A stretch of 64,000 bases of DNA from Amoebophrya sp. A120 (GCA_905178155.1 CAJINV010000002.1:12285621-12349620), one strand, 5' to 3'. Positions 7,197-56,243 are shown, numbered from the stretch's first letter. The notes: a model not told the origin generated them from the letters alone. Translations and numbers: made by a program.

Positions 7197-9725
7197 CTAC
7201 CTAGAGCCAGAAGTGACTGTTGATGAAAGGTTCGCTTTCACTCGGTTGCGCAACTGCAGCTCCTCCGCCAACTCACGCAGCTGCCTCTCCCGGTCGTTTC
7301 GCGTGCCTAGCATCGACTCTGTGTGTCCGGGGACGGGCCCCGCACGGTAAATCAGATCAAAACCGCCGACCCGGGTGATCTGATCGTGGTAGTCCAGCGC
7401 GTTGCCATTTTCGTCTACCTGCGCCAAGTACTTCTCCAGATCCAGAATAGTCAGCACGTCGTCCAGTGTGGCGAACTTCATTTCGTAGTCCGCCTTCGTG
7501 TTGGCGGTCAAGGACGGGCTGGCGTTCACCTCAATCAAGGTGGGGTTAAAGTGCGAATCGATCATGATATCGTAGCCGTACATTTCGAAGCACTTGCGGT
7601 CTGCAATCATCACCCGCTGCACGGCCAGCAGACTGTAGATGATGATTTCCTCGAAACGATTGAAGAGGTCGATGGTGCGCTCACGGCCGATTTTGGAGAT
7701 CAAGTACTGCTTCATCCGCGGGATTTCCCACTTGCCGCCGGTGCGCTGGTAGGTGTTGTCCTTGGAGAAGAGGTTTTTCTGCACCGCCACGTTGGTCAGG
7801 TGCGAGGACAGCTTGGTCGGGTCCCGCACTGTGTCGACCGAGTATCGGGTCAGGGAAAACCGCGCGAACCCTTCTCGACTCAGCCACACGGTGAGCGGCT
7901 GGTAGGAGGTTACTAGTGCATAGATGCGCAAGTCAAACTTCCGCCCGCCGATCAGCAGCGGATTCTCGATGTACTTTTGCACGATGTAGGATTCCGCCGG
8001 CCCCTCGTCGGGGTCGAAATCGTTGCCACCCGCGCCCGCGCCGCCGTAGCCGCCATCGCCCCCGCCGCCGGCGCCGCCCCCGGTCGCGGGCTTCCAGTTC
8101 GCCAACTGGCTCAGCTTGGTGACCATGAAGATGCCAGTGCCCTGACTCCGGCCGACGGGCTTCATAATCCACACCTGCTTCCCGCACCGCCGAAACTCTT
8201 CGACGAACATGCTGTATTCCTGAGGCAGGAGAAACGTGATGGGTATCATCTCCTCGTACTTTCGGGCCGTTTCCAGTGACTGCGCGCTACCTTCCTTTTC
8301 CAACGCACGCTTGTGCCGCTTCACGTTCTTTGCTAAGAGGTCCTTGCGGGTCAGCTCGTAGTGGTTGCGAAAATGGTTCACGCGCTGCCAGGGCTCCAGG
8401 TGCAGCTTTTCCAGCTCCCCGTGAATCCAGTCCTTGTCTGCCCAGTGGATGTGCCAATCCTGCTTCAAGTGCTTCGTGCTCACCGCGCTGGTACCCGCAG
8501 GAGCAGCCACTGCACCTCCGCCAGCACTCGCGGATGTTGACGTGCCTGTCGCTCCTGTAACCGCAGAGCCACCACCGCTGGCAGTACTCGCAGGACCTCC
8601 CAGCTGTCTGGCACTTCCGGGCGGAGACGTCGTCGGGGGTGTGCTCGAAGAAGCAAGGAAAGAAATCGGTTGACCGCCCATACCAGATGCGCCGCTAGTA
8701 CCAGGTCGCGCAGATACAGATGAACCTCCTCCCTTCGTTGCGGCAGTAGGTGTTGTACCCGTTGTACTGCAGCTGGTGGCAACTACCCCCGGAATGCTGT
8801 CATTAGTCGTTGACGCAGACGCACCGGCACCAGATCCTATAGCAACGCCCCCAGAAGTGGACATTGTGGTTGTTGACGAAGCCGATTGCCCCGCTCTCCC
8901 GGTTGCACTCCCGCGGCGAGCGACGTTTGAACTCGACGCAGCAGCACCACCTCCTCCCGTTCCTCCGCCTTCCGTGCCGGCCGCGGCCGACGCAGACGAA
9001 ATCACGGACGCGCCGCTATCCTGAGTAAAAACGTACCCACACCAGAGTCAAGATGGGGAATCGGCTAGACAAATCCACAAGTTTTGGCTGTTTTGCATGA
9101 CAAATTTGGATTCGTAGTGTAGTGCTGTTTGAGCTAGCTCAGCAGCATGACAGATCTAGCATATCATGCTGATTGGAGCATGACAAATTGCAAAACACGA
9201 CTAGAAAACGCTTCTCATGGGGCTCCGCATGAGAAACATTTTCAGCATGCAGATTTGCATGACAACTATGGTGTGGGTACGTTTTTACTCAGGATAACCG
9301 CTGCGCGGGGTCCGCGGCGACGGCAGGTCATCGACGCCCCATTCCTTCCACCCCCGGCTCTTGAAAACGTCATTATGGAGAGAAAAAAGTTTGTCACAGT
9401 CATGTCACTAAGTTGCAGATTTTGCATTACAAATTTTTTTAGCATCACAGCTTCTCCTTGTATAATTGCAGAAACACTAGGGAAATCCCTTATGAAGTGT
9501 GGCTGTGATGCATTTTTACGCATGACAGACAATTTTGTATTGCAAAAACGCCCATTAGTGATCGTGACGAACTTTTTTCTTTTGATAGTCATAGATGGTG
9601 TTGTAGTGCGAGCTTCCCTCCCCCGTAACCGCGTCCGTGACGCGATGCAACTTGGCGCAACGAAATTTGATCTGTTGCCACGGCGCCGGATCCCGTTTAA
9701 TGATGCGGCGAAAATGCTCGGACAT
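7197..9725 (-). CDS. TTLL9: Tubulin polyglutamylase TTLL9-like (TTL family), 3 exons split by two introners
   Basis: Motifs IKFR...NTIYDVFKSRGW (restored by introner removal), HFRNHYELTRK, WIMKPVGRSQG, KFDLRIY, HLTNVAVQK, FEMYGYD and EVNASPS. Confidence 0.85.
9017..9296. mobile_element. Introner family C (280 bp)
   Basis: TIR tatcctgagtaaaaacgtacccacacca / tggtgtgggtacgtttttactcaggata. Flanks gccgc and accgc (4/5 match). Removal gives PRTPRSGASVIS. Confidence 0.93.
9374..9587. mobile_element. Introner family D (214 bp)
   Basis: TIR tatggagagaaaaaagtttgtcac / gtgacgaacttttttcttttgata. Direct repeat gtcat at 9369-9373 and 9588-9592. Removal gives NTIYDVFKSRGW. Confidence 0.92.
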
Positions 9726-10356: not shown

Positions 10357-13300
10357 TTAGCCCGGCGGAGAGCTGCCAAAATGCTTCACACGAAATTGCC
10401 AAATTCCCGAGTGCCCATCGTATCCAAGAAATTCCGCGCCCTTTTCGACCGTCATGTTGCGCACTCGATCTAGGTACGCCTGGGGGTCTGCGAAGTTCGC
10501 CGGCGGCAGACAATTGTACATGATCACGGAGGCCGGTTTGTTCAATCCCTCACCAACGGGTGGCTTCGTCTCCTCCGAGAACAAAGGCGGAGGGTACACC
10601 TTGTTGAAGTAAACGGATACGGATCAAGTTGAAGTTAAAATCTGGATCTCTTGCTTGTGCTTATCATATTAATGCGAAAACATAAAACTGAAAAACGATA
10701 ACGACGGGATTGCAGATATTACTTAGGGCTTTTATCTTCTATGTATAATCTCTATCATCCCCGACCTCGAAAAGGAAAACAAAGAATCAAGCCGGCAAAT
10801 TCATCGTCTACTAAGTTAGTTAATACCACGACACATCCCCTAGACAGCTGCACGACCTCGCGGAAGTTGATTCCGCGGACGTCTGTAACGCCGTGGAAGG
10901 TGACCTGACCGACGTCGCGCTTGTGGACGGTCAACTCGTGCACAAACAGCGAGGAACCGTGCCGTCCCACGACGTCCTCCCGGCTGGGATCTAGGGTGTC
11001 CAAATCTGGAAAGAGTTCGAACTCCCCCGGATCCACCAGGAACCGGGTGTAGTTGCTAGCCCGCCCGAATTTCCGCTCAAGGGTCAGCTTGCGCTGCTTT
11101 TCCAGGTGGTACTCGGAGAATGGCTTCTGCTGCTTGAATTTGGTCTCCTCGTGCTGCTGCACGACACGAAACCGTCGGTCTTCGTCTTGTTGGAGGTGCT
11201 GCCCCGGCTGTTGTTGATGCTGTTGCGGCGCAGCCGACTGAGCGACCGATAACTGCACCTGCAGTTCGTCCTCCGCACAATACGGGACCGGTGTACTAGT
11301 TGTAACACACTCTTGGAGTCCTCCCGCAGGGTCCAGTGGGCGAGTGTAGTAATTTTCACGTGCAACTTCGTCGTAAGGACGGGGCGCTTCGCTTCGGGGG
11401 GCGTCGCTTGTCGAGGTGGACGGACGGTGTTGCGCTGCGTTTTTCTGCTGCTCTTCGTCGACATGAAGCTGGGACTGAGATATTAAGTGGTCATGTCGAG
11501 CGATAGAATAAGAATATCATCATAAAGCAGATCGCTGGTGATGTTGTTTTTTTTCACCCACGCATTCTTTTGTTTTTTTTTAATGATACGCGTACTTCCA
11601 CTTTTTTGCAGCAAGAGCCGTCTCACTCGATGTACTCGTACAGTACTGAAAGTCAAAAATAAACAGATGTACTCCTCGGTGTTCGAGATTGTTCCCCTGT
11701 TCGACGCAGAGAGGTGGCTGTCCTCCCACGGACTGATCTTGAGAAGCGCTAACATTCCGATGCTCATGCTCTTCCGCATGTGCAGGATTCGCGGCTGCGC
11801 CGGCATTGCTTTGACCAACAGTCCCCTGCAGCTGCTCAGATGACTCCGTCGAATCCTGCACAGCGGCCAGGTCGGCGTTAAACTGCGCCTTTACCGCTTG
11901 GTACCATTCCCGGTACTCATTCACATTAAACTGCGGAATCTGCGAGTGGGCCTTGAGATTGGCGATCTCTGGGCCGGGCAGGCTCTTATGCCTTGTCAAT
12001 TGCAGATAGAACATCGCGCTGCGCACGAAGCGTGCGTAGGGGGCGAGGATCGCAGACACCTCCAAGACCGCCTCTTCGTCGTACGCCGGGGGGCGGGGAA
12101 CAGCGGAGGAAGTGGCTCTTTCGCGATCCTGCTGGTGGTCAGCTTCTGCGGCACCTCCGTGCTCGGAACCATGTGGATCGAGCAAATATTCCTTCACGCG
12201 GAGGAACGTCTGCCGGGGCACTTTGTTGATCTGAAACAGGTTCAGTCGCTGCTCGAACATGCCCTTGCTCACGTAGCCCAGAATCGAGGCCCAACGCAAG
12301 TCGTGGAACTGCAGCAGTGCGCAGACGGACTCCACCACACGCTGGATCAGCTGCCGGTTCTTTCTGTGCTTCAGCGACGACGAAGGAGAGGAATTCGTCG
12401 AGGTCGGTTGCTCGCCTCTGCTTTGTCCTCTTTCTTCTTCTGCCACTTCTGCTGCAAATGAAGTAGATGAGCCGCCGGCGCCTTTTGCTTTTGCAGCGCG
12501 AGTACTGTTTGGTACTGACAAGTGCGCGACCATTTCGGCAGCACTGGCGACGTCAACTTGCCCGGGAATACCCGCGGCCGACGTCGGCGCCACGAACTCG
12601 TACTGGTGTGACAGCACGAAGTTGCGAAAGTCAATTTGCGCGTCCTTGCGGCGGATCAGCTCCAAACTGACGCGGATGCACTCCAATGATTCTTCCACCT
12701 GCATGGCGTTGTAGTCCTTGAATGACAAACCGTACTCCCGTTTCATGTAATGGTCCATGATCAGATAATCGGGGTCGTTTTCGGTGTCTGCCGCGTTGAC
12801 CTGCCCGCTCTGGCTCTGGCCCAGATGCGACACTGAAGCAGCAGACTCCTGAAGAAAGTCCCGCGGTGGCGGCGCGTAATCGTCGTGGTCAGGAGATGAG
12901 GTAGAAACACCACTTGTTCTCTGGTGCTCGCTTGCAGCTGCAGGCAAGGCGGACCGTGTGGAGGCCCGGTCGTTTTTGATTTCCTGCTGCGGCTTTAGAG
13001 TCTGATGGGCAGCTTGTTGTTGGCGTTCTGCAGTCAACGTGGACGAAGCGGTTCCCGAATGATGCAATCCAGCTGCTGTAGCACCAGGACGAGAGCCAGG
13101 AGCTACGTTCAAAACAAGTTCTCGGTGCTGTGTGCTCGGTTGCGCCGGTGGAATTCTGTGCACCAAATTGGAGCTCTTCGAGGGAAATGAAGCTGCTGCA
13201 CTTGCAGCGCTAGACGAGCCCCCGAGCGCGCTACCCGTCGGCGACTGTCGCTTCGAGCTGTTGCTCGATGTCGTTGTCGGCGAGGACTGAGCGGACTCCG

Positions 13301-16300
13301 TCGCGTTCACTGCTCCTGCTGCAGCCGTGGCGGAGGTTGTGCGACCGGGCGCATCAAACTTCACATTCTTGTTTCTCGTCTGGTGTGATAATTTGGCACT
13401 TGCTCCTCCTGTTGTGCTCTTACCACCACTACCACCAGCAGCACCGCCCGCGCCTGTACTTGACGGCACCCCGCCGGTAGAAGCAGTTGGAGGCACTTTC
13501 TTCCGCACGGATGAAGAAGGAACTGCTGGCGCTAAGCTGCTTCCAACGGCCATGCCTGGTTGTTGTTTCAGCGGCCGGCCGCTCGCTGCTGATCCTCCTG
13601 TGGCCGCGCCAGTGTTGGATCCGTAGGAGCCCGTACGGCTGCGGCCACGAGAGGATGCGCGCGCGCCTGCCACGTTTAGCGAAGTTCCTGGCTGAGCTTT
13701 TCTCACAAGCGCGGCGCGCGGTCTAGCGGTCGCGGCAGAACTCGTAGTGGTGCTGATACTATTTTGAAAGTTTGCCGACTTGACGGTCTCCAGAATATGT
13801 GGGGACTTTGTGCGTTTCAGCGTGCTGCCCTGCTGACGGTCGGGCAGCGCCTGCGGTTCTCCATGCCGCGTGACCTGCTCACCCGGATGATAACCCGCTG
13901 AGGATGATGAGGACCTCGTAGCTCCTTCCCCCGCACTCGTGCTGCTCGTCGCAGTGGATGAACCTTGCTGCATCGTGAGCTGCGGCTGGGGATGCACCGG
14001 ATTCACCCGTGCTTGGAAGGAAGATGCTGCTTCGGCAACAGCTGCTGGCGCTACCTCATCGAGCGGAAGTGCGACAGGAACGGTAGTCGACACGAAGCTG
14101 GGCTTGGTCGGTTCGGCGGGCTCTGTACCTGTCATGACCGCCAGTCTTTGTCGCAGCGCCAGCGCTTTCTGCTGCACCGAAGAAGTGAGCGGCCTGTAGT
14201 TGCTTTGGATTTTCGGACTGTAAGTGATTCGCAGCACAGGACTGCCCTCGTCGGGACTGGGTTTCGACAGTGTGGAACCCCCTCCAGCAGGTTGTGCTGA
14301 ACTGCCGACATCGTCACTCTCCTGGTCCTGGCTTGCCAGACCATGCTGAAGAACCCCAGCCGCGGTGGTCGCAGTCGTGTGTCCTTGTGGAGCTCCTGCA
14401 AGCAGAACGGATGACACTTGCGATGCTGCGGACGACGACGCGGGCCGCTGTAACGCAGCGGCAGCAGCAATGCTATGACTTTTGTCTGGGGTTGCGAAAG
14501 TGACGTTTGGAGGAAAATCATGGCACTGCGTTGTACCCTCGGTATACGCCCCACGTCCAACGGCCTGTTCTGAACCCAAGGAAGATCCACTGGGGTAGAG
14601 GTGCACGGCACTCTTGTCGTTTCCACTTACCTGAGTAGCCTGCACGCTGCCAGGTGTATAGGCTGCTTTTGTCATGTCGTCACGACCGGCGCAGGATGTG
14701 CTCGTGCTAGCCTGTAGAAAGATCGAAGTACTTTCTTAATTGCGATCGTGTTTTTCTTATGCCGCTCAATATCTTCGCAATCGCATCAGAGTCAGACTCA
14801 AAGTGAAGCTGCATGCGAATCAAATAAAATTTTTCTTTTTGTTCCTGCCACTGCGGGGAGTAAGCGTATCTTGTAGAAGATGAAGAACATAACATCCGTG
14901 TCATTTTCGTATTTCTATAAAAAAGCGTTATCTTACCTGTGCGAGCGGGGCTATATTCAGTGACGGCGCAGGACCCGCTCCCGCAGCGGTCTGCGACCCC
15001 TCCTGGTGTTGAGCAACGCGGGGCTGTGTCGCCATGACAGTTCGTGTCGGCGATTGCGCTCGTGGATGCATCAGCGCTGCTGACTGCATGCTTCGAAAGT
15101 GCAGGCCGGGCGACGCGTTTGTTTGAAGAAAGCCTTTCTGCGGGGTTACTTGCAAACTCGCACTCGATGGCGTTCCGGACAAACCCTGGCTCAAAGCACG
15201 GATTTGCGCGCCGCCACTGGCTGAAGTTGAGGTTGACGGGTGCTGACCGCCTCCCGCGATTGTTGGCCCGCCTGAACCCAGTGACACTTGGGCTCCAGCA
15301 ACCGCAAGCCCCGCCTGCAGCGTCCTCTGCTGCGCTTGCGCACTGTTCGGGGGAACATCGGTCGTGGGTAAAGCACCAGTCGAGGGCGCAGCGGATAAGC
15401 TTCCGTACTGTTTGTTTTGCGGGCTGAAGCCCAAGCGTGTGAGACTGGATGACCGAGAGGAGTGTTGAAATGGTGTTCCGCCGAAGAGTTGCACTCCCCG
15501 GAGGACGGGCCTCGGGGAGAGCTTCGGCGTGTGCGCAAGTGACGTGGGCGCTAGTTGACCGGCCGCGCGGTGTAGTTGTTGCCCGCTTGTAATTGTACTT
15601 TCCGGGGCAGCAAACGCAGCAGGCACAGATGACCCTGCAGCAGCAGAACATGCATCAGCAGAAGTTGTTCCGGTTGCTGGATGAACGGCCAATGTTGTTG
15701 TACTCGTGGCAGCACCCACGTTAGCTCCCGTATGCATTGCAAAAGCATCGTACTAGTATGAATCGCATCACAGATTTTTTCAATAACAAAAAAGCAATTT
15801 GTCATGCTAGTTCAGGTAGAAAGTTGGATTTGTCATGCATGACTGCAATTACTACGACTACGATACTTTTGCACAGGATATCCCGCCGCCCTGGACGATG
15901 ACGAAGACGATTCCGACGCCGAGAGGCTGGCTGAACTAGCAGCCCCTGTTGTAGCTCCACCTACTTCCGCAGATGCAGTTCCTGGTGTTCCGTTGCGCTG
16001 CTGTTCTTGCCGCTCCTCCTGCTTTTTAATCTGCTGCTGTGCGGCTCTGTGTGCTTTGCTGGAGAGACTGACAGGAGGTCTTGGCGGTACCGGTGCGGTC
16101 TTGACGCTCGAATTCGACGGCTGGTGCCCAGCACTTGATGACGGTAGTACTGGTGGTCTGTGCTGCTGTGCAGCCGTCGGGTGGTAGGTCGTCCGCGCCC
16201 CACCACGAGTCACCATCTGGAGGTTGCCGGAAGCCAAACCTCCTGGCTGCAACCCAACAAGCCCCCCGGAATGGCGATGGCCAACGGCAACTCCGCGGGT

Positions 16301-16855
16301 CTGCATACCGGGCGAGTGGTAGGCTGGTGGTCGATTGATGTTGCCGCTGACTAGCACATTCGCAGTCGTCGGCGGCGCAACCGGCCGCGTTGGGGGAGTG
16401 CTGAACAGAGCCGCGTTGTTGCGATATGGCGAGGTCGACCGCATGGCCAAGGGCCCGTCCGCCGAACTGTGGCGGACCGCTGCGGTACCCGTGACCGTCA
16501 CCGGCTGTGCCACGTTGATCGGCGTCGCTCCTGTTCTGGCCGCTAACTGCGGTGCGGGCGAGTTCGACGTTGGGCGAGAAGAAATACCCGCTAGGCTCAC
16601 CGGTGTCAGTACATTTAGTGCACGCCCGCGCTGCGGCGGTGTACCGTAAAACGGCTGCGGTTTGATGAAGCTTGGTGTGGCGACGCGTTCCTGAGTCGCG
16701 CCAGATGCCGCTGCAACAGTAGTGGCAGACGCGAACATGCTCTGCAAAAAGCCATCGGTGCCACCTCCTGGACTCGGCGCGGCGGGGCGCGCGCTTGCAT
16801 AATGATGCTGACCCGCAACCGTTCCGGCCGCTGTTGATGCTTGCTGCGGTATCAT
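10357..16855 (-). CDS. Large low-complexity protein with a dynein microtubule-binding-domain-like region and a C-terminal Nup98/Nup145-type peptidase S59 (Nucleoporin2) domain
   Basis: In-frame GT-AG introns at 10600-10826, 11475-11672 and 14712-14936, plus introner 15731-15880. C-terminus VGQVTFHGVTDV...VVVYPP...KPPVGEGLNKPA...GAEFLGYD...GIWQFRVKHF matches the S59 domain. Confidence 0.72.
15731..15880. mobile_element. Introner family F (150 bp)
   Basis: tatgcattgcaaaagcatcgta / tacgatacttttgcacaggata. Direct repeat tcccg at 15726-15730 and 15881-15885. Removal joins ORFs in frame (SSRAAGANVGAAT). Confidence 0.92.
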
Positions 16856-24289: not shown

Positions 24290-27200
24290 TTACGGTGTGG
24301 CGAATCCTTTTCTCCAGCCACTGCACCCAATTTCTTGCCCGCACATTTCCAGCCGGAGGTAGTCGGTCGAGGCCTTGATCATGTGATTCACGATGATGAT
24401 GCAACACGAGTGCAGCCTGTGCGAAATGGATTCTTCGTCACTGTCCCGGCGGTACACGTCCATGTTTCCTTCAGTTTTCATCGTTTTCTCCACTTGCGAG
24501 GTGAATTCCACCTCGTCCTTCCGTTTCCAACAGACTTCGTCGTCCTCCAAGCAGCACTTGCAGCAGGACAGGGGCGGCTTGAACTCGCAGTAGTACTGTG
24601 CCAGTACCTGCCGCAACACTTGCCCGCCGAGCGTGCAGATGTTCGGCGGGCTGATCTCGCGGCTCCCATCCGTCGCGATGACGGACTGGTGCTCTTGGCT
24701 GCTGTGCACCGCGATCTCTGGGTCGGTCAGCAGTCTCGTCACCTGCTGCATCGAGGAGAAGACGTCCGAATGGTCCACCAGAAACTCGTGCTGTTGCACA
24801 ACGCCATAGATGTTCGGCAGTAGGCAGTACCCGAAATCCGGTATCCCCTTGATCCGGACGGGATGAAGGGACGTCGAGAGGAGGTCCGCCATGGTGCTTG
24901 TTTGCGATGCTGTTTGTTGAACTGTATCGCTTTTCTCCTCGTCACCTGAATGACGAGTCTGACCCGTAGTTGCCGAAGGGTCTTCAGCACCACCAGCTGC
25001 CAGTGCAATCGTCCCCTTTCTTGAAAGTATCCTTTGCTGCACGGCGCGGTGAGTCGTCTCCTGATCAGCCAGGCCGAGGGTGTGGGCAGGATGAAGGGAC
25101 TCTAGAGAACTGACAGCTGGGTGGAGCTGGAGGTGGCCACCTATTACCCTTGAACCATCACTCGGCACGCCTGACACATCGTCTACCTCGTACAGCGTGT
25201 GGCCTGGAAAGCTGTCCGTCGCTCCAATGTAAGGCTCCGGCAAAACGCGGCCCGATCGGCCATAGATTTCCCGCAACAGCCTGCGGTGGACACCCATCTG
25301 GTCACGAAGCATCTGCTTCTGGAGCACGAAGGAGGATTTTAGATTCAAATGCTGGCGAGGAAAATAGCTTGCAGTGACGCGCCTCTTTCGGTGGCGCCCC
25401 CACCGCCACTTGCTCCAGTAGGAGCGGAAAAGCGACGTGCTACTGTCAACTTTCAGTAATTCCACTTGTCGCTTCAGCCAAGCTTCAGCGGTCGTGGCAC
25501 GACCATCAGCTTCAAAGTCTTCGCCGTTCTCTCTCTCTGGAAAGAACCACAGCCTGTGAAACGCCGCCGCTTCCTTCCCGCTGAAGGATCGTTTCCTTTT
25601 GGTGTCGCCGTCCGCGTTTTGTTTCTCTACTTCAGCATCTGACCTTGACGCTCCGTGGTCTTCACCATGATGGTGCGTCGCAAACTCCAGAAAACGTCTT
25701 GCTGCTTGTCGTTGTTGCCGGGCGTGCCAGAACACAGGCGCAAGCTTGTTTATCTCCAGTGCCCGCCTCTTCACGCGTGCCTCGGCGCGCTTGCTAGTTG
25801 AGAAACACGGATGTCCACCTTCTATATCCAAGTCAGGAAAGTGCTCGCTCCTTGGCTTACTCGTGGCGTTCTCCTGGATTCCTTCGCCTGTCGTGCGTTG
25901 CGTTCTTTCACTCTCCGGTTGAGGTATGATTGCATCCTGGCCGACCCTCGCCGCACTTTCGTCCAAAAGCCGTTCCAAGGGGCGGCGCGCGCGTGTGGGA
26001 AACAAAGTTTCAAGGAAGGGAAGCAGCTGTGACTCACAAATGTCGAACTCGTGTGGGAGGCGCTTCAGCTTTACGTGATGCCGCGTCTTTACATTGAACA
26101 CGAAATCGGAGAAGGACGATGAAGCTTCCCTGGCACTGGTAGTCGGCAGCGCAGCAGCATCGTGCGTGTAGCTCTGTGGCTCGCTTTCTTCTCCACTTCT
26201 GCTCATGGTACTAGCCTTATGTTGGTCATACAGAAAACGAACCACATTCTGCAACGTCTGCTGGGGTTTCCGTTGCAGGCTGTAGGTGCTAACGTAAAAT
26301 AGATTCTCGTCCTGAATCTGGTTCGCGAAGACCTTCGTGTACTTCTGGAAAAATGCCGGGAGGCTTAATGCCCTCTGCGTTTCCGAGGAATCGCTCTGGT
26401 CCAAATTAGCAAGAACCCCAGCATCGGAATCGGATGAAGCTGAAGATGCGTCACTTCCCGCACAACTGGTTCTGCTGGAAAAGACAGTGAAGCGCAGCTT
26501 CCGAGCGTCCTCTGTCCCTCCGGCAACGTGCAAAATCGAGCAGATGAATCCTCGTCGATTGTGTCCTTCGTCCGGAATGAGCTGGGAAAACCGCGAAATG
26601 CACAGTTTTGGTAGTTTCTGTAGTGTGCGAGCAAGGTATTGAGCTAGCTTACTGTCTTCATTCCAAGAATCATCAGGCTTTTCTGCTCCGTCAGGAACGT
26701 CTCCGTCAGATCGTTGTACTAAGCGAATCTGGAAAAACGATGCGAAGTCAAGTTCCATCGTGAGCGGGTCATGAGGCGTGACGTGATGCACCATCGGACT
26801 TCGTGCAGATGTGGGTGTCGCTTCAGCGGAATCCTGATCAGGAAAAAGAAGCTCCAGCTTGCCTTTCGCTTTGCACTCCATCAAAATATCGTCCATGGAC
26901 GATGGAGACGTAGCTCCTTCTTGCCCACATAGCCGCTCGTCTGCAAACTTTCCGGAAGTGCTTCTACTTGTTCCAGCAAAATTTCCTTGGATTGCGCCGC
27001 TGGTCCCGAACACGGTTTTCAAACAATCTGCTATCTTTTCCGCGAACTCGCTGTTTGCCTCGAGGTCATCCCACAGACGAGCAGGCGTGTCACGATGAGG
27101 ATCTGGAGCAGTTTCGTTTTCGACTTCCTCGTTTAGCACATGCATGGCGGCCTGGTTTTCGTAGAGTAACCTATCCTGGGCAACTACGTTTCCCGCACGA

Positions 27201-28057
27201 CCTCGTTGATTTCCGGCTGCTCGCACAGCCAGCAAAACCGCTTCCGCCACCACAGCCAGCACCCCACGGACAAACTTCTCCTGCAAGTTCCCATCGAGCT
27301 CGGGCGTCAGAAGGATTTTCTTCGCCGTTTGGATTTCTTCGTGCAACAAGCCGACGGACAAATGAATGGGGTCGTCCCAGTGCATCAGCCACGGCGTTCC
27401 CGCGTGCAGCCAGGACAGCATCATCCCCAATGGATCGCGGATTAGAAAGATCACCTTCAAATCATTGGGGTTCCGGACCCGGTACTTGACGAAGTGTAGC
27501 ACCTCCGCGCTGAAGGCGAGCAGTGGGTCCTTGATGCCGCATTTCTTGCGCGCCTTGTTCCCGGCGGTGGTCCAGCCTGGGACAACTTCTAGGTCCTCGG
27601 GTCGAACAGGATCAACAACACCATGATGTGCCTGCAAAAAGCCTGCGTATCCGTTCTCGTTCCACCATTTTTCGTGGTCTTGCTGGGAGATCCGTCCGCG
27701 CCAAAAGATTGTGTCCTCTTCGTGGTACAGATACAGGAGCGGGTGCTGCCGGAGGTACTGCAAAATCGACGTGGTCCCAGACTGCGGAAAGCCGACAATG
27801 ACGAAATCAATGTCCATGTAGAAAAAGTCAAAGTCCTCCGGAATTTCGGTCGTGGCACCTTCAAAAATCAAGGGGTCCCCAGCAAGATCGCGATGCTTCT
27901 CAGAAGTTGCAGAAGATACCGGGTAGAGCTGGGAATCTTCCGTGGTTGCCGAAGATGGCTCGCTCGATAGATCACCGAGCACCTGCTGTAAAACAAACCG
28001 CAACAGGGAAAAAAGGCGCAACGATGCGACGAACGAACTGAAGCTCGACCGGACCAT
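24290..28057 (-). CDS. Signal-peptide-bearing sulfotransferase-domain protein (1255 aa ORF)
   Basis: Hydrophobic N-terminus, PAPS-loop-like DFVIVGFPQSGTTSILQYLRQHP and 3'-PB-like LKVIFLIRDP...S. Confidence 0.75.
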   Translation of the reverse strand: MVRSSFSSFVASLRLFSLLRFVLQQVLGDLSSEPSSATTEDSQLYPVSSATSEKHRDLAGDPLIFEGATTEIPEDFDFFYMDIDFVIVGFPQSGTTSILQYLRQHPLLYLYHEEDTIFWRGRISQQDHEKWWNENGYAGFLQAHHGVVDPVRPEDLEVVPGWTTAGNKARKKCGIKDPLLAFSAEVLHFVKYRVRNPNDLKVIFLIRDPLGMMLSWLHAGTPWLMHWDDPIHLSVGLLHEEIQTAKKILLTPELDGNLQEKFVRGVLAVVAEAVLLAVRAAGNQRGRAGNVVAQDRLLYENQAAMHVLNEEVENETAPDPHRDTPARLWDDLEANSEFAEKIADCLKTVFGTSGAIQGNFAGTSRSTSGKFADERLCGQEGATSPSSMDDILMECKAKGKLELLFPDQDSAEATPTSARSPMVHHVTPHDPLTMELDFASFFQIRLVQRSDGDVPDGAEKPDDSWNEDSKLAQYLARTLQKLPKLCISRFSQLIPDEGHNRRGFICSILHVAGGTEDARKLRFTVFSSRTSCAGSDASSASSDSDAGVLANLDQSDSSETQRALSLPAFFQKYTKVFANQIQDENLFYVSTYSLQRKPQQTLQNVVRFLYDQHKASTMSRSGEESEPQSYTHDAAALPTTSAREASSSFSDFVFNVKTRHHVKLKRLPHEFDICESQLLPFLETLFPTRARRPLERLLDESAARVGQDAIIPQPESERTQRTTGEGIQENATSKPRSEHFPDLDIEGGHPCFSTSKRAEARVKRRALEINKLAPVFWHARQQRQAARRFLEFATHHHGEDHGASRSDAEVEKQNADGDTKRKRSFSGKEAAAFHRLWFFPERENGEDFEADGRATTAEAWLKRQVELLKVDSSTSLFRSYWSKWRWGRHRKRRVTASYFPRQHLNLKSSFVLQKQMLRDQMGVHRRLLREIYGRSGRVLPEPYIGATDSFPGHTLYEVDDVSGVPSDGSRVIGGHLQLHPAVSSLESLHPAHTLGLADQETTHRAVQQRILSRKGTIALAAGGAEDPSATTGQTRHSGDEEKSDTVQQTASQTSTMADLLSTSLHPVRIKGIPDFGYCLLPNIYGVVQQHEFLVDHSDVFSSMQQVTRLLTDPEIAVHSSQEHQSVIATDGSREISPPNICTLGGQVLRQVLAQYYCEFKPPLSCCKCCLEDDEVCWKRKDEVEFTSQVEKTMKTEGNMDVYRRDSDEESISHRLHSCCIIIVNHMIKASTDYLRLEMCGQEIGCSGWRKGFATP

Positions 28058-28621
28058 TTTGTCTCTTTCCTTCCCTTTATTGTGTCCTTAGTCTTGTTTG
28101 CTTCAGGGACCGGACGTGACTGAGAAAACATTCGCAAACTTTCTCGTTGATCGGAATCCATCTGCGAATCTGACAATTGCTGGTACTAGCAGGGGGGGCC
28201 ACAAAAAGCGAACATGATCAAATAGGCCTTGTTGAAGAAGACAGCGCCTAAGCGGCGGGGTTCCAAAATGTAGCTTCGTCCGATTATTCTTCAGTTGTGC
28301 AGCGCTTTCAAGCTGCTCGTTGCAGCTGCAGTTGTTGCAGCATCAGCACTCCTTTTTTAAAGATCTGCGTTTCTTTTTTGCGCCAAGTCAATCATGCTCA
28401 TGCTAACTCATGCGCCATCAAACATCACATCCATCAACTCGCCTGTCGCTGCGAGTATCCCAGTATTCCGAATGGCTATCCGCAGATCAAATTATCGTAG
28501 AAAAATTTTCAACAGTCACGAGACACCAGATGCTTCAATTTTTTCCTTTTTCGAACGCCGAAACCAGATATGCCGGAACGCAGCGACATTGACGTCGTGC
28601 ACGTGGATGCAAAACAAAGTA

Positions 28622-30193: not shown

Positions 30194-33100
30194 TCAGAAC
30201 TGAACCCAGTACACGTAGTCGCTCACAACATGCATGGTGAGCCCGGTATTGCAGTATCGGCGGAAAGAATGTAAATCTTGTGTACTATTTTTATCGCGAC
30301 GGACTACATCGGAGTTCCGCGCTTCTGCGTCCTCCTTATCTTGTTCGAGAGCCAGGACGCCACAGTACCCATTCAGGAGCTCGTGGAAGAAGCCCAAAAC
30401 TCCGTGCGCCATGCCGGGAAAGGTGAAGAGCCCCAGATCGTGACCCGCGAGAATGCCACCAGGTTTCTTGACCTTCCAGAAGTAGTATTCCAAGTCGCTG
30501 CGCACGCCGGCCTCGCTGTGATCGCCATCTACAAAAATGAAATCGGCCGAGTTATCCGCAAAATGCTGGTGAACATCCTGGGCGTACTCCTGCAACACTT
30601 GAAAATGGAGCGGGTCACCACGGGAGGAGACGAGCTTCTCCTGGCCGATGGTGATTTTTTCTACTATTTTTTGTTCTGCATTTTTACTCTCCTGGTTCAT
30701 TTCCTCCGCTGCAGCTACCGGCTTCATTCTTTGATGACAAGGTGACGACTCAACCGGCGCGCCGGGTGCTGCCGTGGTCGAAAGGCCTTGTGCGATGCAC
30801 CAATCTTCCGTCGAGTGGTCCAGACCATTGGCGTTCGTGTTGTGCAAAAGTGTGTCCACCCGGTAGTCTCGGACATAGTTGCAATAATCAAGGATCCGGC
30901 TGTTTGAAATCGTGTTCATCTGAGACACGCCAGATGAGATGATCTGACGGCTGTCCTCTTTTTTGTTCTCGCACTTTTCCCATGCGAATCCCTGCTTTTC
31001 AGCATCAGTGCGTATGTTCCCAGCCTGTATCTCTGACGGCAGCAGTGCCACTTTCTTCCTGATCTCCTGCACAACGAGTGCCGCACAGGCCGCATCTCCC
31101 CGGCACGCGTCCACGCCAAGCTCCTCAGTGGTTGACGTGCGCCAGTCCTGCAGGCCGGGAATGTTCCGCTGTCCCTCCGGCCACGGATCGACTAGGTGGA
31201 AGAAGATCTTGTCTTGGAGTAGCGGGTCCTGCAGAACTCGTGTCTCGACCGCCGCGAGGAAAACCCCGATGCTGATGGTCTGGAGCTTTTCATCTTGCGC
31301 ATGATGTCCTCCTCCCTTGCCTGTCTGGCCCTGCCGTTTCGCGACGAGCTTCCGCAACAGAAACACCACCCAGTCGTAGTGTGTGATGCACGTGTCGTCG
31401 TGAAATTCGAACTGCATCAGCTCACGACTGGCTGCTTTCTGGTACGCGTCCAGACTCGCAAGGAGAGATATGCGCTCTGTGTCTTGTTTCTCATTCTCAC
31501 GACCGTCTTTTTCTGCTGTGAGTCTCTCCACGATTTCCGGAAAGTCTTTCCGGATTCCCTGCTGCAATGCGAAACCCAAAAACTTGTGTTTTGTCTTCGC
31601 GCCAACACGCAACTCGTTGTCGTTTCCAAAAAAGCGCGCAAGACTCACATCCCAACGCGCGCGTGCAGCCTGCTGCAAAACTTCGTGCCACGTGTGGCTG
31701 CGTACTAGGTCCCCGAAGTAGCGCAGCCGATCTTTCTCCAACAAGCAGGACGGTACGCGGAGTAGCGGGTAGCTGCACTGCATTCTGACCTCAAGGTTGC
31801 TGAGAGGCGTGACGGTTTGCAGAAAGCTGTCGTCCACCGGGAGAATTTCGTCCTGCGGCGGAGCCATCATAAACGGGTCGGAGCGCGGGATCGGAGCTTC
31901 CGTCCCGTTGACAAACAAACCCTGCAAGCCCGAAAACCAGCGTGGAAACTCCCGTGCGCGGATGTCGATCCTCGGTGATATTCGGTGCCCGCGCTCGTTC
32001 CGGACGTTCGGCGACGAGGCCCAGAATTTGTCCGCGGAAGAGGCATCCTTGGAAGGCGTGGACAAGCCGAGCATGTTCGGTGTCGCGACAAAGTCCAAAA
32101 ACGGATTGAACTTGTGTCCCTTGCGGAGCATCGCTTCCTGCATGGTAGGCGACATGAAGCCGTTGTTCGGCTCGTACACCGGAATGTGCTCGTGGTCCGC
32201 TGTGATTCGGCCGAGTAGCAATGCGCCGTGGAAGCTTTTCTCGATACCCAGCTCCCGATGGTCGTACTCCACACCGAGCCACTGCCTTGTGTACTCGTGC
32301 GGCGATTGGCCGTTCTGCGCGAAAGAGATCGGCGACTTTCCTTCGCGTAAGTGCCGCACGTTAGACTGTTTCACCATCGTGAAGAACGAATGCAGCGCCC
32401 GCCACTCGAGGATATCCAGCTTCGTCCGAGCCAGGTCGGTCGCGTTGCGAAAGGCAATTTCGTCCTCAGAAACGAATGTTGCGTCGTTTTCGTCCGCTGC
32501 GGCGCGCTTCGTGTACTCGGGATGCACGTCGGGAACGGCGACAAGCCGAGCGAAAGTGGCGCCGAGGCAGTTGCTGCGCAAAAGGGAATCTGCAATGCGG
32601 TTGGCCATTCGCTTCAAAAACTGCAGGTGTTTTTTCTGGCGATCGGCGTTTTCCAACACAATGCGTGTTTTCGTCAGCCGCAGAAACGCAGCGAGAATGC
32701 GCTTCGATTTCTTCTCAAACGCAAGTTCTTCGACCTCCGCTCCGTCGATGCTGGGGACCACATCGGAACGCAGGTCCCGGACCGCAAGCAACCCACGCTC
32801 GTGGGCTTTCGGTCGTGGTGCTGCGTTGGAAAACTTGAAGTTTTGCGCATCGCTCGACGACGGAATAAGGAGTCTGCTCTTGGAAAGCACGGCGGTAGCG
32901 ATGATTTTTGTTGCCTTGTTGTCCGTGCTGCCCGGGTCAAGGAAATCCGAAAACTCTTCGAAATCTTCTTGTACGACCTGCCCGCCCGCTTCTTCGTCGA
33001 AGTTTGCGAAGTACGGCGTCAACGCTCCCTCTGTGAAAAGCCGTCTCGTCGTGCTGGTGCTGCTGGTGGTCGAACCTGTTTTACTTGTGTCTGGAGACTG

Positions 33101-34633
33101 TGTGGCCGACGAAGCAGCTCCGTCTTCCGCATTAATCGCGAAAGCCTTCACCCACGCGGCTTGCAGTTTTTCGACCTCTCCCAACATCGCGTCCACCATA
33201 TCCATAACATCCGTCAACGACGACGCCCACATTTCAGCTGCTTGGCGCAAAAAGCCGCGGAAGAGCAGCTCGCTGCGCGGACAAAATCGCAGATCCAGCG
33301 AAAAGTGGTCAGGAAGAACTTTGTTTTTTCGCAAGCTGAAATCAGCCAGCAGCAAATCTTCCTTCAGAGCCGAAACCATCTGATCCTTGAGCCCATGAAC
33401 CGCTGCACGTGCCTGCATTTTCCTCGCATCCGCATCCTCCGCACTGTACGACGGCGCCTGCGCTATCTCCTCGCCCGCACGTCCGAGTCTGACAAAAATT
33501 CCGTGCGTTATGTCCTTCGCGAACCTGTCGGCGAGAAAGGGGTTTGTGAAGCGGAGCTTCTCCGTGCAGTACAGCTTTTCGTACGACTTGACCGCTTCTT
33601 GCATGCTGTAGAGGACTTTTGCGGCTAGTCGGTCGAACAAAGACGCAACCTTGAACAGGTAGAAATCCGCGAATGCGAGGTCCTCGGACACCCAAGCCAT
33701 CGTTTCAAATTTTGCAAGATGCCCACGCAGTCTCGCCGTCAAAGAGCTTAATTTTGCTTCGTCAGTTTGACCGCTCTGCCGAAACTGCAGGATTTTCTGA
33801 ATTGCTGCCAGGGTCTCTCTGATCGTGCTCTCGCTTGGAAGGTAGTCGTCGGCGGCGGCAGGTGGCCCGTGGCGCTCATCTTCACGATTTGAAGCCGTTG
33901 TCGAACTGGTCCGTGTCGTTGCTGACGTTTTTGCAAAAATCTTCGTAGAAGTACTTGGCACCGATTGCAGAAACTTCGAAACCACGTTGTTCTCCAAGTA
34001 CTCGACGGCGTGCTCAACCAGTTTCGTGAGCCCCAGGCTCTCGTTGTGCATAAACTCGGACTTGCCGACGCCACCGCCGGAAGTGAACCTGTCCTCATCT
34101 TCCCGCGTAACCGGCGGCACCACGTGCATCACCCTGTACATCACGAATCTCTTCGCCAGCGCGACAAACCCCCCGGCCAGCGGTGCGAAGTACGCCTGAA
34201 CCTCTCTGTCGTGGAAATCCTGGGCGAGAAAGTCGACTTTGCCAAAATCGCGAACGAGCGAAAATGACTCCTCTGCTGTTTGTCTCTCTGAGAAAGTGTC
34301 CACTTGCACTTCTGGAGCGGGTTCGACGAGCGTCCTGGGCGACCAAATCTTCGCGGCCTCTGCACCGTGCACGGAACTCGTCACGCTTCTGGGCGGGTGC
34401 AAGTGGGGGTCCGGTTCGAGGTCGAGCGCTTGTAGCTCTTGCAGACCCCCTTTCGCGAACGTGACGAGTGAACAGCTCGCGCTGCCTGTCAATACCACGA
34501 GATGAAGGCCAATTTTCCGTCTCCATTTTGGCACGACCGAAGCGCTTCTGCATGCGTATGCAACAGATGATCTGACTGACGCGGCGCCTCCCCAAGGAGG
34601 CCGCTGATCGTGATTCTTTCTAAGCAAGGTCAT
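30194..34633 (-). CDS. 1479-aa protein with an N-terminal hydrophobic segment and a C-terminal class I SAM-dependent methyltransferase domain (Methyltransf_24-like)
   Basis: Single long ORF with FADNSADFIFVDGDHSEAGVRSDLEYYFWKVKKPGGILAGHD. Confidence 0.8.
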   Translation of the reverse strand: MTLLRKNHDQRPPWGGAASVRSSVAYACRSASVVPKWRRKIGLHLVVLTGSASCSLVTFAKGGLQELQALDLEPDPHLHPPRSVTSSVHGAEAAKIWSPRTLVEPAPEVQVDTFSERQTAEESFSLVRDFGKVDFLAQDFHDREVQAYFAPLAGGFVALAKRFVMYRVMHVVPPVTREDEDRFTSGGGVGKSEFMHNESLGLTKLVEHAVEYLENNVVSKFLQSVPSTSTKIFAKTSATTRTSSTTASNREDERHGPPAAADDYLPSESTIRETLAAIQKILQFRQSGQTDEAKLSSLTARLRGHLAKFETMAWVSEDLAFADFYLFKVASLFDRLAAKVLYSMQEAVKSYEKLYCTEKLRFTNPFLADRFAKDITHGIFVRLGRAGEEIAQAPSYSAEDADARKMQARAAVHGLKDQMVSALKEDLLLADFSLRKNKVLPDHFSLDLRFCPRSELLFRGFLRQAAEMWASSLTDVMDMVDAMLGEVEKLQAAWVKAFAINAEDGAASSATQSPDTSKTGSTTSSTSTTRRLFTEGALTPYFANFDEEAGGQVVQEDFEEFSDFLDPGSTDNKATKIIATAVLSKSRLLIPSSSDAQNFKFSNAAPRPKAHERGLLAVRDLRSDVVPSIDGAEVEELAFEKKSKRILAAFLRLTKTRIVLENADRQKKHLQFLKRMANRIADSLLRSNCLGATFARLVAVPDVHPEYTKRAAADENDATFVSEDEIAFRNATDLARTKLDILEWRALHSFFTMVKQSNVRHLREGKSPISFAQNGQSPHEYTRQWLGVEYDHRELGIEKSFHGALLLGRITADHEHIPVYEPNNGFMSPTMQEAMLRKGHKFNPFLDFVATPNMLGLSTPSKDASSADKFWASSPNVRNERGHRISPRIDIRAREFPRWFSGLQGLFVNGTEAPIPRSDPFMMAPPQDEILPVDDSFLQTVTPLSNLEVRMQCSYPLLRVPSCLLEKDRLRYFGDLVRSHTWHEVLQQAARARWDVSLARFFGNDNELRVGAKTKHKFLGFALQQGIRKDFPEIVERLTAEKDGRENEKQDTERISLLASLDAYQKAASRELMQFEFHDDTCITHYDWVVFLLRKLVAKRQGQTGKGGGHHAQDEKLQTISIGVFLAAVETRVLQDPLLQDKIFFHLVDPWPEGQRNIPGLQDWRTSTTEELGVDACRGDAACAALVVQEIRKKVALLPSEIQAGNIRTDAEKQGFAWEKCENKKEDSRQIISSGVSQMNTISNSRILDYCNYVRDYRVDTLLHNTNANGLDHSTEDWCIAQGLSTTAAPGAPVESSPCHQRMKPVAAAEEMNQESKNAEQKIVEKITIGQEKLVSSRGDPLHFQVLQEYAQDVHQHFADNSADFIFVDGDHSEAGVRSDLEYYFWKVKKPGGILAGHDLGLFTFPGMAHGVLGFFHELLNGYCGVLALEQDKEDAEARNSDVVRRDKNSTQDLHSFRRYCNTGLTMHVVSDYVYWVQF

Positions 34634-35789
34634 TGACGCATCTCCGTTCTATGCTGATTTTCCTTTACTCAATTCCAGATCGCGGTGTCGAACTAGCATT
34701 CGTTTGTTCCCCTTTCTCAATGACGCTGTCAAAAAGTATACAGCCACACGCAACGTACAAAGAGATTCGCGTCTCAACCGGAACAAGTTCGATTTTTTTT
34801 CGAATTCAGAGGTAATGCCTACCAATCTTGCATTGTCTGCTGCAGTCCGTCTCAATATCGTCTCGTCACGTCGTGGTGTACAAGTTCATCTTGCACAGTT
34901 GCAAGTTGTTCGCGGCAATTTGTTGTACTATCGCTAGTCTTGAATTGTACAAGCCCACAGGGGTAGTCAGCTGCAAAACTTATTTTAGAGGGACGATAAA
35001 ACATAGAGTTCATCGGAGACAGCCTGTTCAGCTAAGTTCTAGCAGAAGCACTAAACTTGTCTCTGTTGCTTGTGGTGCGTGCTGTCTTTTTTTACGAGGG
35101 TCGCCTGGCTAGTGTACGTCGTCGTGAAATACGACGCAAAACTAAAGACAAGTTCATCAGAGAAACTTCCGAAGAACCTCTCGTAGTGAAACTGTGGTAG
35201 AAGTAGACCTAGTTTAGAGAGAGAAGAATAAGGGTGATTATACAATGAGTTCATTTGGATTTGGACAGAAATGTCGCGAAGATAGAGTTAGAGAGACAAC
35301 ATTTTCAGGTACTGCTGTAAACATTAACATAACTTGTTTCCGTAGCTGCTATATCAATCTGTCAGTCTTACTTTCTGCAGCACAATTGCGCCGCTTGCAA
35401 AACTTCGATAGTTGAAATGCGAAGCGATGAATCATTTTTGCTGAGACCCTTACCGAAAACCGATGAATCATGTCTGCTGGTTTTTGATTTCTTTTGTCTG
35501 ATAGCTAATCGAGAACTAATAGTTGTTTCAATCTGCTAAAGTCAGTCAGTCGACGTTCATTTTGCTAGTAAGAAGAATAACGGATAGGAGTTCATTTCTT
35601 CTCGTGGAAGAGTTTAAACATTTGGAAACGGTCCTTTCTGGTAGCTGTGCTTGTGCTCCTTTCTCGACTCCAAATTTTTTTCGTAGAAGTAGCTTAGCTT
35701 TAGTTTCAATTTTTGCATTTGTTCCTGCAGTATTTTTTACCTTCTGGTTCTGCTCAGAGAAAGTTGCAGTTGCATATCACATACCTTTT

Positions 35790-51929: not shown

Positions 51930-54462
51930 GATGGTTGGAGATTTTAAGACTTTTAGTAAATGGCTCTCGCTATCAAGTAGAAGTCAAGGTTTAAGCTTTA
52001 CAAGGGAAAGCGGCTAATTGGCGGGCGATTCGAACTTTTCCAAAACTTTTCATTTGACTTTTCAGGATTTCAGGGCATTGAAAACGATTTGATAAAGCGA
52101 GTCAGAACGAAAAAACGCAGTGAAGATACTCCAAGCGACAGAACAGGGGCGCTTGCGAGGTCTTGGGCGCCGACGCCTCCTCTTGTCCCGCGGGTGATCG
52201 GCGAATCCCGAGCGACCGCCTTTCCACCCGCCGAAGCGTGCGCGCGCGCCGGGTACCCGCCGACCGCACGCAGCCAACGGCTGCCGGCGCGGGCGCCCTA
52301 AAGAAAAAGGCCATGACCGCCCATCGCACCCACCCGCCCCCCAGGCCCGGAAGGCCTACCCGGGAACTGACTAGGAGGAGGGCTACCGACACAGGGAAGG
52401 GGGCCGGTCCGCCAGACCCTAAACCCGACGCAACCGGGCACCCGGCAACGCGCGCCCTCGCCAAAAAACGCGCGCGCCCAAGCCTCACAAACACCCGGAA
52501 TCGCGGCGCCAGCCCGCGCCTCCTGCCGCCGGCGGGCCGCCACCGCGAAACGGCCCGACCCTGGCAGCTTTCTTAATGCAAAGCAACCACCGGCCAAAAG
52601 CTGCCGGCGGTGTGTGCTGCTGTTTCGCGCTTTTCCACATGAGGAAGATCAAAGCGCGCCAGCCTGTTGGGCTTTGTTTGACTTCAACGAACCGCCGGCG
52701 CCGGGTTCTATCGGTCGCCGGCTGATAATACTAACGACACAGGAGGGCCGACAAAGAAAAGGGGCACCCCGCTGAGGCGCCGGCCGCGTGGGGTTCTGGC
52801 GATTTGGGGCGCGCAAAAGAGCGCCCCAAAAAACTCGCGGCAAATCAGAAAAGCGAAGCCGCACGACAGGGCCGGGGCTCCGTTCGGAGCATTTGGCCGG
52901 CCGCGAAAGCGGCCGCCGCCTTTTCGCCGGTTTCTATGCGGCGGAAGCTTTGCAAAGGGTGCCGGCGCGCAAAGAAAAAACACAGAAAAGCAAAAGCGCG
53001 CCAAGCGCGCGAGGCCAATCCCCATGCCATGGGACCGGTTTGCCTTCGGTTTCAGGGCGCTCCACCGCGGCGCCCGGATCGGCCCCATACCGCCAGGGCT
53101 AGCTTTCGGACAGGGGTTCTGAAAATTTGGCAAAGAACTACCATGCTTTCCAAAAGACGGCCAAGCCACGCGGCATGGCCATACCAAAAGCGGCACGGGG
53201 GGCCCAGAAAAAAGACACAGTGGCTGGCCAGGGCAACGGCCGGCGGGCGGGCAAGGCAGCCAGCGGCACCGACCTCACCACCTCCGCCACGGAGGCTATA
53301 TTTGGCACGCTGGGCACACGCAGCAGCGGCTTACCGTCCGACAGCCCCACACGTAGCAAGCAAACAGGCCCCGAGGGTAACTAAGCCCCCACGACGTCCC
53401 CTCCCCTACGTCGCACGCAGGGGCGCAGTTCCGCCCGTGCACCAACCACATCGCCCGGCGCCCCAACATGGCTCGCCCCGCCCGAAACGGTGTCGAGCGT
53501 GCCATGCGGTCCGACGTCGGACCGCACGGTATGCTTGTCGGAAAAGCAAAACAGCAAACGCACAGGCCCCGGCTGACCAGATAGAGACGAAACAGATCGC
53601 CCAATCCCGGCCCACAGGGTGGGGCGCAGGGCGAGCGAAGGGCGAGACGAACGACGGGTGGCAATCGGGCCGCCGGCACGTAGGAAGTAGACCCGCGGCG
53701 GCGCCGCCCGGTATTCCAGGCGCGCAGGCAGGCCGGCGGGGCCCAACATGCAGGCGCGCCCCCATATCAGAGGGCGGGAGGCCCCCAGACAGGCCGGCCC
53801 CGGCCGGCTGGCGCCTGGCGGATGCGGCGGAATCGCTTCGGCGCCCCAATAACACGCCTCCCCCGCCCGGGCTCAGCAGTGCGCAGGGAGGCGCCACGCC
53901 CGCGCGGCTGTTGCCGGCCGGCACACTGTGGCCCCGGTCTAGGTCGGTCGCGGGCGGGGGGGGCGAAGGACTGGCGCGGCCGGGCCGGGTGTTCCTTCCG
54001 TCTATGGGTTTGGGCAAACCGACGCCAACCCCAGCGGCGCCCGGGCCCCCAAGAGCCCGCCGGCCGCCGCAAGTGTGGAGTACGCGGAGCGCATGCCCCG
54101 CACGCGCCCCGAACGGCGCAACGCGCCAACCAAGTTCAGGGGGTCGGTAGCAACCGCCGAAGCCCGGGCGCCCTCTCTTGGTTCGCAGCAAGCTACACGC
54201 GCACCGGCGCCCCCGGGGCGTGAATCCGCTGCCCGGTGGCGCATGCGACAACGTAGCGCCGGCCGCCCGCCGGGGCGGGGCCGGCCGCTTGCCTGGCTAC
54301 GTGCGCAATAACCGCAGGCGTGCCTGCCGGGGGGCTGTGCCTGCCTCTTTTCGGGCGCAAGGCAGCCGCCCGAGGGCGGCCCGGCTGGCGGGCAGGAACA
54401 AAGGGCAGGCGCCGGGCGGCGAAACTTTTCCGCCCCTCTACCGAAAACTCTGCCGGAAACTT

Positions 54463-56207: not shown

Positions 56208-56243
56208 CATACCATGCGGTCCGACGTCGGACCGCATGGTATG
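56208..56243. repeat. Perfect 36-bp palindrome (related copy at 53502-53529)
   Basis: cataccatgcggtccgac|gtcggaccgcatggtatg. Confidence 0.95.

Follow-up and report, generated by a model that had tools for sequence, protein, structure and literature searches.

Introduction

The contact between dynein and the microtubule is well described: according to PMC4298687, two highly conserved residues of the microtubule-binding domain (MTBD), E3390 in helix 1 and R3469 in helix 6, pair with R403 and E416 of alpha-tubulin, and the equivalent human residues are given as E3306 and R3384 (PMC12706001; see also PMC4987762). Dynein-2 is reported to bind microtubules through a neutral to slightly acidic surface, yet it keeps this arginine (PMC12706001). 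At the nuclear pore, autoproteolytic domains (APDs) recruit Nup98/Nup145N to NUP88/Nup82, and human NUP98 is described as docking NUP88 via K814 and via a hydrophobic groove that takes an FGL loop (bioRxiv 10.1101/2021.10.26.465790). Nuclear pores and microtubules are brought together around mitosis by the animal RanBP2-BICD2-dynein system, which is described as using a full motor plus adaptors; the protein described here would serve a similar link as one motor-less polypeptide.

What is known of the attachment of microtubules to chromosomes and to the nuclear envelope during closed mitosis in dinoflagellates and related parasites comes from electron microscopy only. Amoebophrya is reported to be without classic dinomitosis (PMC6351617). 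According to Moon et al. 2015 (cited from PMC12114471), a cylinder of microtubules lies outside the nucleus in interphase, lodged in a nuclear depression, and later moves inside and forms the spindle. For the related Syndinium, kinetochore discs are described that lie within openings of the nuclear membrane (PMC2109247). A protein that carries both a pore-docking and a dynein-derived domain is a concrete candidate for such an attachment.

The locus analysed here lies in a 64,000-nucleotide stretch of the Amoebophrya sp. A120 genome (the window). Its gene joins a module that, by profile and fold comparison, is a dynein MTBD homologue to a C-terminal Nup98-type APD, and the gene models indicate that this fusion is conserved in two divergent Amoebophrya strains.

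Structure of the gene

The host protein was identified as Amoebophrya sp. A120 CAD7937075.1 (GSA120T00016683001, annotated as 'unnamed protein product'), which has 1,897 amino acids and matches the window letter for letter in five exons, from 16855 to 10357 on the minus strand. A minus-strand frame (14735..11583) carries the MTBD motif string, from window position 12707 down to approximately 11995. The sequence-only reading had placed the fusion at 10357..12700; the end at 10357 agrees with the gene model, while the start does not, as the gene begins at 16855 and approximately 1,230 residues precede the module. The parts of the gene are as follows.

15881..16855, minus strand: exon 1, aa 1-325, start ATG at 16855; low complexity (A/S/T/G/P); exact protein mapping
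15726..15880, minus strand: intron 1, 155 nt, non-canonical, introner-like; exact protein mapping
14937..15725, minus strand: exon 2, aa 326-588, low complexity; exact protein mapping
14712..14936, minus strand: intron 2, 225 nt, GT-AG, phase 0
11673..14711, minus strand: exon 3, aa 589-1601, remainder of the low-complexity N-terminal part, then the MTBD-like module
11475..11672, minus strand: intron 3, 198 nt, GT-AG, phase 0, GC 0.37, between the MTBD-like and S59 exons
10827..11474, minus strand: exon 4, aa 1602-1817, linker, conserved pre-APD motif and first half of S59
10600..10826, minus strand: intron 4, 227 nt, GT-AG, phase 0, within the S59 domain
10357..10599, minus strand: exon 5, aa 1818-1897 and stop, second half of S59, end at His-Phe-Gly

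The in-frame GT-AG introns that had been proposed between the MTBD-like module and the S59 end were both found to be used in CAD7937075.1 (11672-11475 and 10826-10600, each of phase 0), and the product spliced at intron 4 aligns without a gap to Nup98 at that point. The GC content of introns 2-4 is 0.36-0.38, compared to approximately 0.59 in the exons. Exon 4 depends on an upstream exon, since there is no Met in its frame. Intron 1 is bounded by a 5-nt direct repeat, which lets the junction shift by as much as 5 nt, together with imperfect terminal inverted repeats, and matches the introner type that PMC7789003 defines and reports in the A120 genome. Section 25 of that paper describes the A120 gene models as built with aligned transcripts and proteins as input and not ab initio, and the model at this locus includes the non-canonical intron 1, which a GT-AG predictor would miss; the gene id is absent from the one supplementary file of PMC7789003 that was searched. 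The N-terminal region of approximately 1,230 residues is of low complexity, rich in A, S, T, G and P, with a net charge of +46, and no transmembrane segment is predicted in the A120 protein.

Occurrence of the fusion

In Amoebophrya sp. AT5.2 the orthologue g11109.t1 (787 aa) carries the MTBD-like and S59 domains in one gene model and in the same order; its MTBD-like region is 41% identical to that of A120 (E 9e-72), and both S59 halves also match. The proposed single-gene fusion is borne out in this respect by one annotated gene model in each of the two strains. The MTBD-like module and APD blocks are 60-80% conserved between the strains, compared to 26% for the linker (pairwise alignment, 149 columns).

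Word-index protein searches (length windows of 432-2000 aa) retrieved only the A120 and AT5.2 proteins, and g11109.t1 is the only full-length homologue found besides the A120 protein. A HMMER search of 1.84 billion representative proteins with a two-sequence profile gave four matches at E <= 0.001, one of which (P0004) was dropped as false, being a bacterial-type cadherin-repeat protein. A third homologue, P0003, is a fragment of 141 aa from a contig of 1,071 nt (E 9e-8), which covers helices 2-6 of the MTBD and the family-specific motif behind it (post-CC2 motif, see below), is without the large insertions and ends soon after this motif; its alignments score 160 and 156, whereas 300 shuffles reached at most 44 and 53. 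The homologue set comprises two full-length proteins and this fragment. A search for the fusion in other alveolates, suggested by the sequence-only reading, returned none beyond the Amoebophrya strains: word-index and HMMER searches of limited sensitivity yielded no homologue from core dinoflagellates or from other alveolates, and because the HMMER search also missed the dyneins, absence from other alveolates or from strain A25 is weak evidence. Two metagenome scans gave 255 and 596 pattern matches, none of which was confirmed.

No MTBD-Nup98 fusion or motor-less MTBD was found in print, in a literature drawn mostly from outside subscription journals, and the portions of PMC6062611, PMC8421043, PMC11508785 and PMC12905489 that were available do not describe the fusion. 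It is a conserved and apparently undescribed combination of two known modules, with a narrow known range.

The MTBD-like module

The module and its surroundings were divided into the following parts, with identities between A120 and AT5.2 from the pairwise alignment.

12705..12776, minus strand: conserved helical segment that precedes the module, aa 1234-1257, 58% identical
12597..12704, minus strand: putative end of CC1 and helix 1, aa 1258-1293, 44% identical; assigned by eye only
12351..12596, minus strand: low-complexity insertion of 83 aa that separates putative helix 1 from helix 2 (42 aa in AT5.2)
12177..12350, minus strand: MTBD helices 2-5, aa 1376-1433, 64% identical (58 columns)
12090..12176, minus strand: insertion between helices 5 and 6, 29 aa (0 aa in AT5.2; also absent from P0003)
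11985..12089, minus strand: MTBD helix 6 and start of CC2, aa 1463-1497, 80% identical (35 columns)
11877..11969, minus strand: post-CC2 family-specific motif, aa 1503-1533, 71% identical (31 columns); also in P0003

Sequence homology to the dynein MTBD spans helices 2-6 and the start of CC2. The two insertions that had been noticed in the MTBD pattern are present in A120 (83 and 29 aa) and differ in AT5.2 (42 and 0 aa). The MTBD piece of the window gave no Pfam MT match and no PDB match, and a two-sequence profile gave no PDB match either, because the insertions mask the signal. With the AT5.2 piece, 22 PDB matches were obtained at E <= 10, all but one of them (21/22) to dyneins, with a best E of 3.6e-6. 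A three-sequence profile gave 41 PDB matches at E <= 1 (best E 6e-7), 40 of which are dynein heavy chains or MTBD constructs as called by title and length (these include two titled 'AAA+ ATPase', one 'MKIAA0325' and one 'radial spoke head 9', the last 4,583 aa long); the sole non-dynein match was a P450 (E 0.43).

Structure prediction from the single sequence was uninformative (pLDDT 41), and a search of the ESM Atlas with the window piece gave one weak, unrelated lead (0.76). A model of the AT5.2 segment from helix 2 to CC2 had a mean pLDDT of 66 (64-89 over residues 1-90), the confident part of which excludes putative helix 1. When this model was compared with 48,161 chains using VIA-align, the top five were all MTBD structures (Z 8.2-9.8). 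Helices 2-6 and the start of CC2 are alike in the module and in the dynein MTBD (middle of PF12777; PDB 3ERR, 5AYH, 3J1T, 3J6P, 6RZA and 6L4P), the model superposing on MTBD folds with Z 9.4-9.8 and an rmsd of 2.4-2.8 over 92-99 residues (for 3ERR, 2.8 over 99 residues). This is read as agreement with the sequence result and not as separate proof, because a Z below approximately 13 can reflect a common helical arrangement. As to the class of the donor dynein, cytoplasmic dynein-1 was best by sequence, and DNAH7 was tied by fold.

The dynein MTBD-like identity originally read from the motif string is upheld by the three-sequence profile and by the predicted fold (Z up to 9.8). The checks named with that reading gave divided results: Pfam recognised S59 (E 5.6e-23), but for the dynein MT model the AT5.2 piece gave a weak match under the cut-off (E 0.02-0.05); Foldseek ranked dyneins first for the AT5.2 model, but with a best E of 0.04 and none at E <= 0.001, while VIA-align reached Z 9.8.

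Further down the wide fold search, rank 7 was chain L of PDB 9ya2, from the Toxoplasma intraconoidal microtubule, residues 1245-1457 of which match the module with Z 6.9 and an rmsd of 3.5 over 92 residues at 12% identity; this chain was not among the PDB matches of the three-sequence profile (E <= 1). Judged from residue range and size only, it is probably ICMAP2 (TGME49_224700). ICMAP2 is described as having a resolved globular domain of approximately 10% of its 1,678 residues that binds between protofilaments (PMC12819142), and as having no recognisable domain in the paper that first reported it (PMC10774369); the main texts of these two papers make no mention of dynein in this context. Both the Amoebophrya protein and ICMAP2 are long alveolate proteins with a small globular domain of like fold, which in ICMAP2 sits on the outside of the microtubule, and no S59 domain is reported for ICMAP2. 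Going by the fold search, a solved Toxoplasma microtubule structure may already contain an MTBD fold without a motor, one that these main texts do not name.

Two axonemal chains also matched the module, at positions unlike the dynein stalk tip: 9fqr chain Xl (residues 1392-1494, Z 7.5) and 9e5c chain 2e (residues 237-432 of 507, Z 5.2). They may be further motor-less MTBD-like proteins.

The AAA+ ring and the long antiparallel stalk of the dynein heavy chain are missing from the A120 protein. Pfam found S59 alone in the 1,897-aa protein and no dynein-type Walker A pattern was present in six frames of the 64-kb window, in agreement with the earlier statement that no AAA motor is present. The place of the dynein stalk is taken by the post-CC2 motif, whose score in the comparison with P0003 was attained in 0 of 1000 shuffles. 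Compared to dynein, the Amoebophrya module is without ring and long stalk, carries insertions and altered contacts, and has a nucleoporin domain as its fusion partner. The reading as a broken dynein gene was rejected, as there is no motor sequence nearby and conservation is strong.

The face that contacts tubulin is altered. The helix-6 arginine (human R3384, Dictyostelium R3469) is replaced by Glu in all three homologues, whose helix 6 contains four acidic residues and none that is basic. In helix 3, K3336 is replaced by Ala and R3339 by Ile or Leu in both Amoebophrya proteins (positions counted on the AT5.2 PDB alignment; residue numbering as in PMC12706001). Putative helix 1 fits the dynein chain by eye with one extra residue, and HMMER gave no placement for it; on this by-eye assignment the E3306 position is kept as Asp, and the basic pair before the helix-1 acid is Arg-Arg in A120 and Lys-Glu in AT5.2. 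Given the changes in helices 6 and 3, canonical strong microtubule binding is unlikely. The module may bind microtubules weakly or in a different orientation, and the net-basic N-terminal region could add electrostatic affinity.

The Nup98-type domain

Two conserved blocks were delimited at the C-terminus.

10998..11132, minus strand: conserved pre-S59 motif, aa 1716-1760, 64% identical to AT5.2 (45 columns)
10378..10946, minus strand: S59/autoproteolytic domain (APD), aa 1778-1891, spanning intron 4, 60% identical to AT5.2 (111 columns)

The spliced domain matches Pfam PF04096 with E 5.6e-23 (its separate halves with E 1.4e-4 and 4e-14), and all 17 PDB matches of the full A120 protein are to the APDs of Nup98, Nup145N or Nup116, with E 4e-11 for the Nup98 APD; the C-terminal S59 domain proposed from the sequence is confirmed by both. 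The Lys and Asn of the catalytic site, whose roles are taken from a description of the Entamoeba homologue (bioRxiv 10.64898/2026.09.13.750810), and the His-Phe are kept. In place of the His-Phe-Ser/Thr of a cleavage motif, A120 has His-Phe-Gly followed by five residues, and the AT5.2 chain stops at His-Phe. With no cleavage serine and the chain ending here, the domain would not be cleaved and would have no Nup96 after it; the reading as a self-cleaving Nup98-Nup96 precursor was rejected, the serine being absent and nothing following the domain.

No FG/GLFG repeat region was found, FG dipeptides numbering 3 in 1,897 aa (A120) and 2 in 787 aa (AT5.2), and no GLFG occurred in the four window frames counted. 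The position of K814, which was located by counting on the alignment from what we take to be F863 of human NUP98, holds Pro or Asn, and its loop is without Lys or Arg (printed PDB alignments). Since this NUP88-docking residue is missing, the designation of the domain as pore-targeting is an assignment by family. A full C-terminal APD with the catalytic Lys, Asn and His-Phe is common to the Amoebophrya protein and to Nup98, Nup145N, Nup116 and Nup100; the former differs in having no nucleophile, Nup96, FG/GLFG repeats or K814, and has an MTBD-like N-terminal partner instead.

Proposed role and alternative readings

It is quite possible, judging from the domain content, that the protein is a static pore-to-microtubule adaptor, with the APD on the pore scaffold and the MTBD-like module weakly on microtubules. 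The uncleaved APD would bind a pore partner via its hydrophobic groove (a Nup96-type peptide or an FGL loop) and not via the lost K814 loop; the MTBD-like module would touch microtubules non-canonically, via putative helix 1, helped by the long net-basic N-terminal region (+46 in A120). With no stalk there would be no ATP-driven affinity switch, so the link is proposed to be fixed. In the cell, such an adaptor might keep the microtubule cylinder in place against the nuclear envelope while Amoebophrya undergoes closed mitosis. The sequence-only reading had proposed a pore-to-microtubule tether for closed mitosis, and this is still plausible, with both of its halves weakened by the residue changes in the MTBD-like module and in the APD. 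The similar fold of 9ya2 chain L, which is on a microtubule without a motor, speaks for an adaptor. Against it are the acidic helix 6, the lost helix-3 bases, the missing K814, the lack of FG repeats, the distance of 42-83 residues between putative helix 1 and helix 2, and the failure of searches of limited sensitivity to find a homologue in core dinoflagellates or other alveolates. The adaptor is kept as the leading reading because a pore-to-microtubule link would suit Amoebophrya mitosis.

The changes on the tubulin face may also be read as a loss of function. The protein would then be a divergent, FG-less Nup98 paralogue at the pore, the pseudo-MTBD of which has lost tubulin binding and become a protein-binding or dimerisation module. 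The charge reversal of the helix-6 arginine in all three homologues and the disappearance of the basic residues of helix 3 point this way, as do the well-conserved APD and the post-CC2 motif, which is conserved like the MTBD core (71%), as would be expected of a new composite surface. This is somewhat doubtful, however, as dynein-2 is reported to bind with a neutral to slightly acidic surface (PMC12706001), so that charge alone cannot exclude binding; in addition, the contact residues of putative helix 1 are seemingly kept, and a like motor-less fold appears on the microtubule in 9ya2.

The features that weaken pore docking, namely an APD without K814 and the cleavage serine in a protein without FG repeats, would fit a microtubule-associated protein that acts elsewhere (flagellar base, centriole or apical complex) and has reused the APD for a non-pore peptide. 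The nearest non-dynein folds (ranks 6, 7 and 12) come from doublet and intraconoidal microtubule structures, and PMC8421043 cites a report of Nup98 at the base of the cilium. A location away from the pore is nevertheless unlikely, given that every PDB match of the full protein (17/17) is to a Nup98, Nup145N or Nup116 APD and that the loss of one docking loop would still leave the groove. Moreover, non-cleaving APDs such as that of Nup116 stay at the pore.

A mis-joining of two adjacent co-oriented genes by gene prediction is very improbable: PMC7789003 reports long co-oriented blocks with short intergenic regions in Amoebophrya and a gene predictor, Gmove, that selects the longest ORF (section 25), the linker is poorly conserved, P0003 ends shortly past the post-CC2 motif and the fusion is known from gene models, but the same domains are joined in two independently annotated genomes, intron 3 (198 nt, GT-AG) is in frame and poor in GC, like introns 2 and 4, and the frame of exon 4 has no Met.

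The adaptor reading also has a more specific form, in which the protein would fasten the spindle microtubules of syndinians to pore-like openings of the intact nuclear envelope. This is decidedly unlikely; if true, a nucleoporin anchor and a dynein-derived microtubule foot would be combined in one chain, giving the dinoflagellate lineage a first candidate for a kinetochore or spindle anchor that is embedded in the envelope. Even if the protein has another job, two modules, each minus a canonical contact residue yet strongly conserved, have been recombined into a new adaptor.

Neighbouring genes

Directly downstream of the fusion gene is a gene of the tubulin-tyrosine-ligase (TTL) family (7197-9047, minus strand; Pfam TTL E 5.5e-76), with a likely upstream exon near 9300-9380; its adjacency is probably a coincidence within a co-oriented block. 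The 5' part of this gene is interrupted by an element of 290 nt (9012-9301), the ends of which carry a short direct repeat as well as terminal inverted repeats of 37 nt (92% complementary). This element has short motifs in common with intron 1 of the fusion gene and looks like a typical Amoebophrya introner. The upstream neighbour of the fusion gene is unrelated and ends near 18170. Elsewhere in the window, two large single frames on the minus strand (24293-28087 and 30197-34648, of 1,265 and 1,484 aa) gave a weak sulfotransferase match and a methyltransferase match. The block at approximately 52500-57400 differs from the remainder of the window in being GC-rich (0.63-0.70), in its strong AT skew and in its many long frames that overlap one another, and is possibly a repeat or mobile element.
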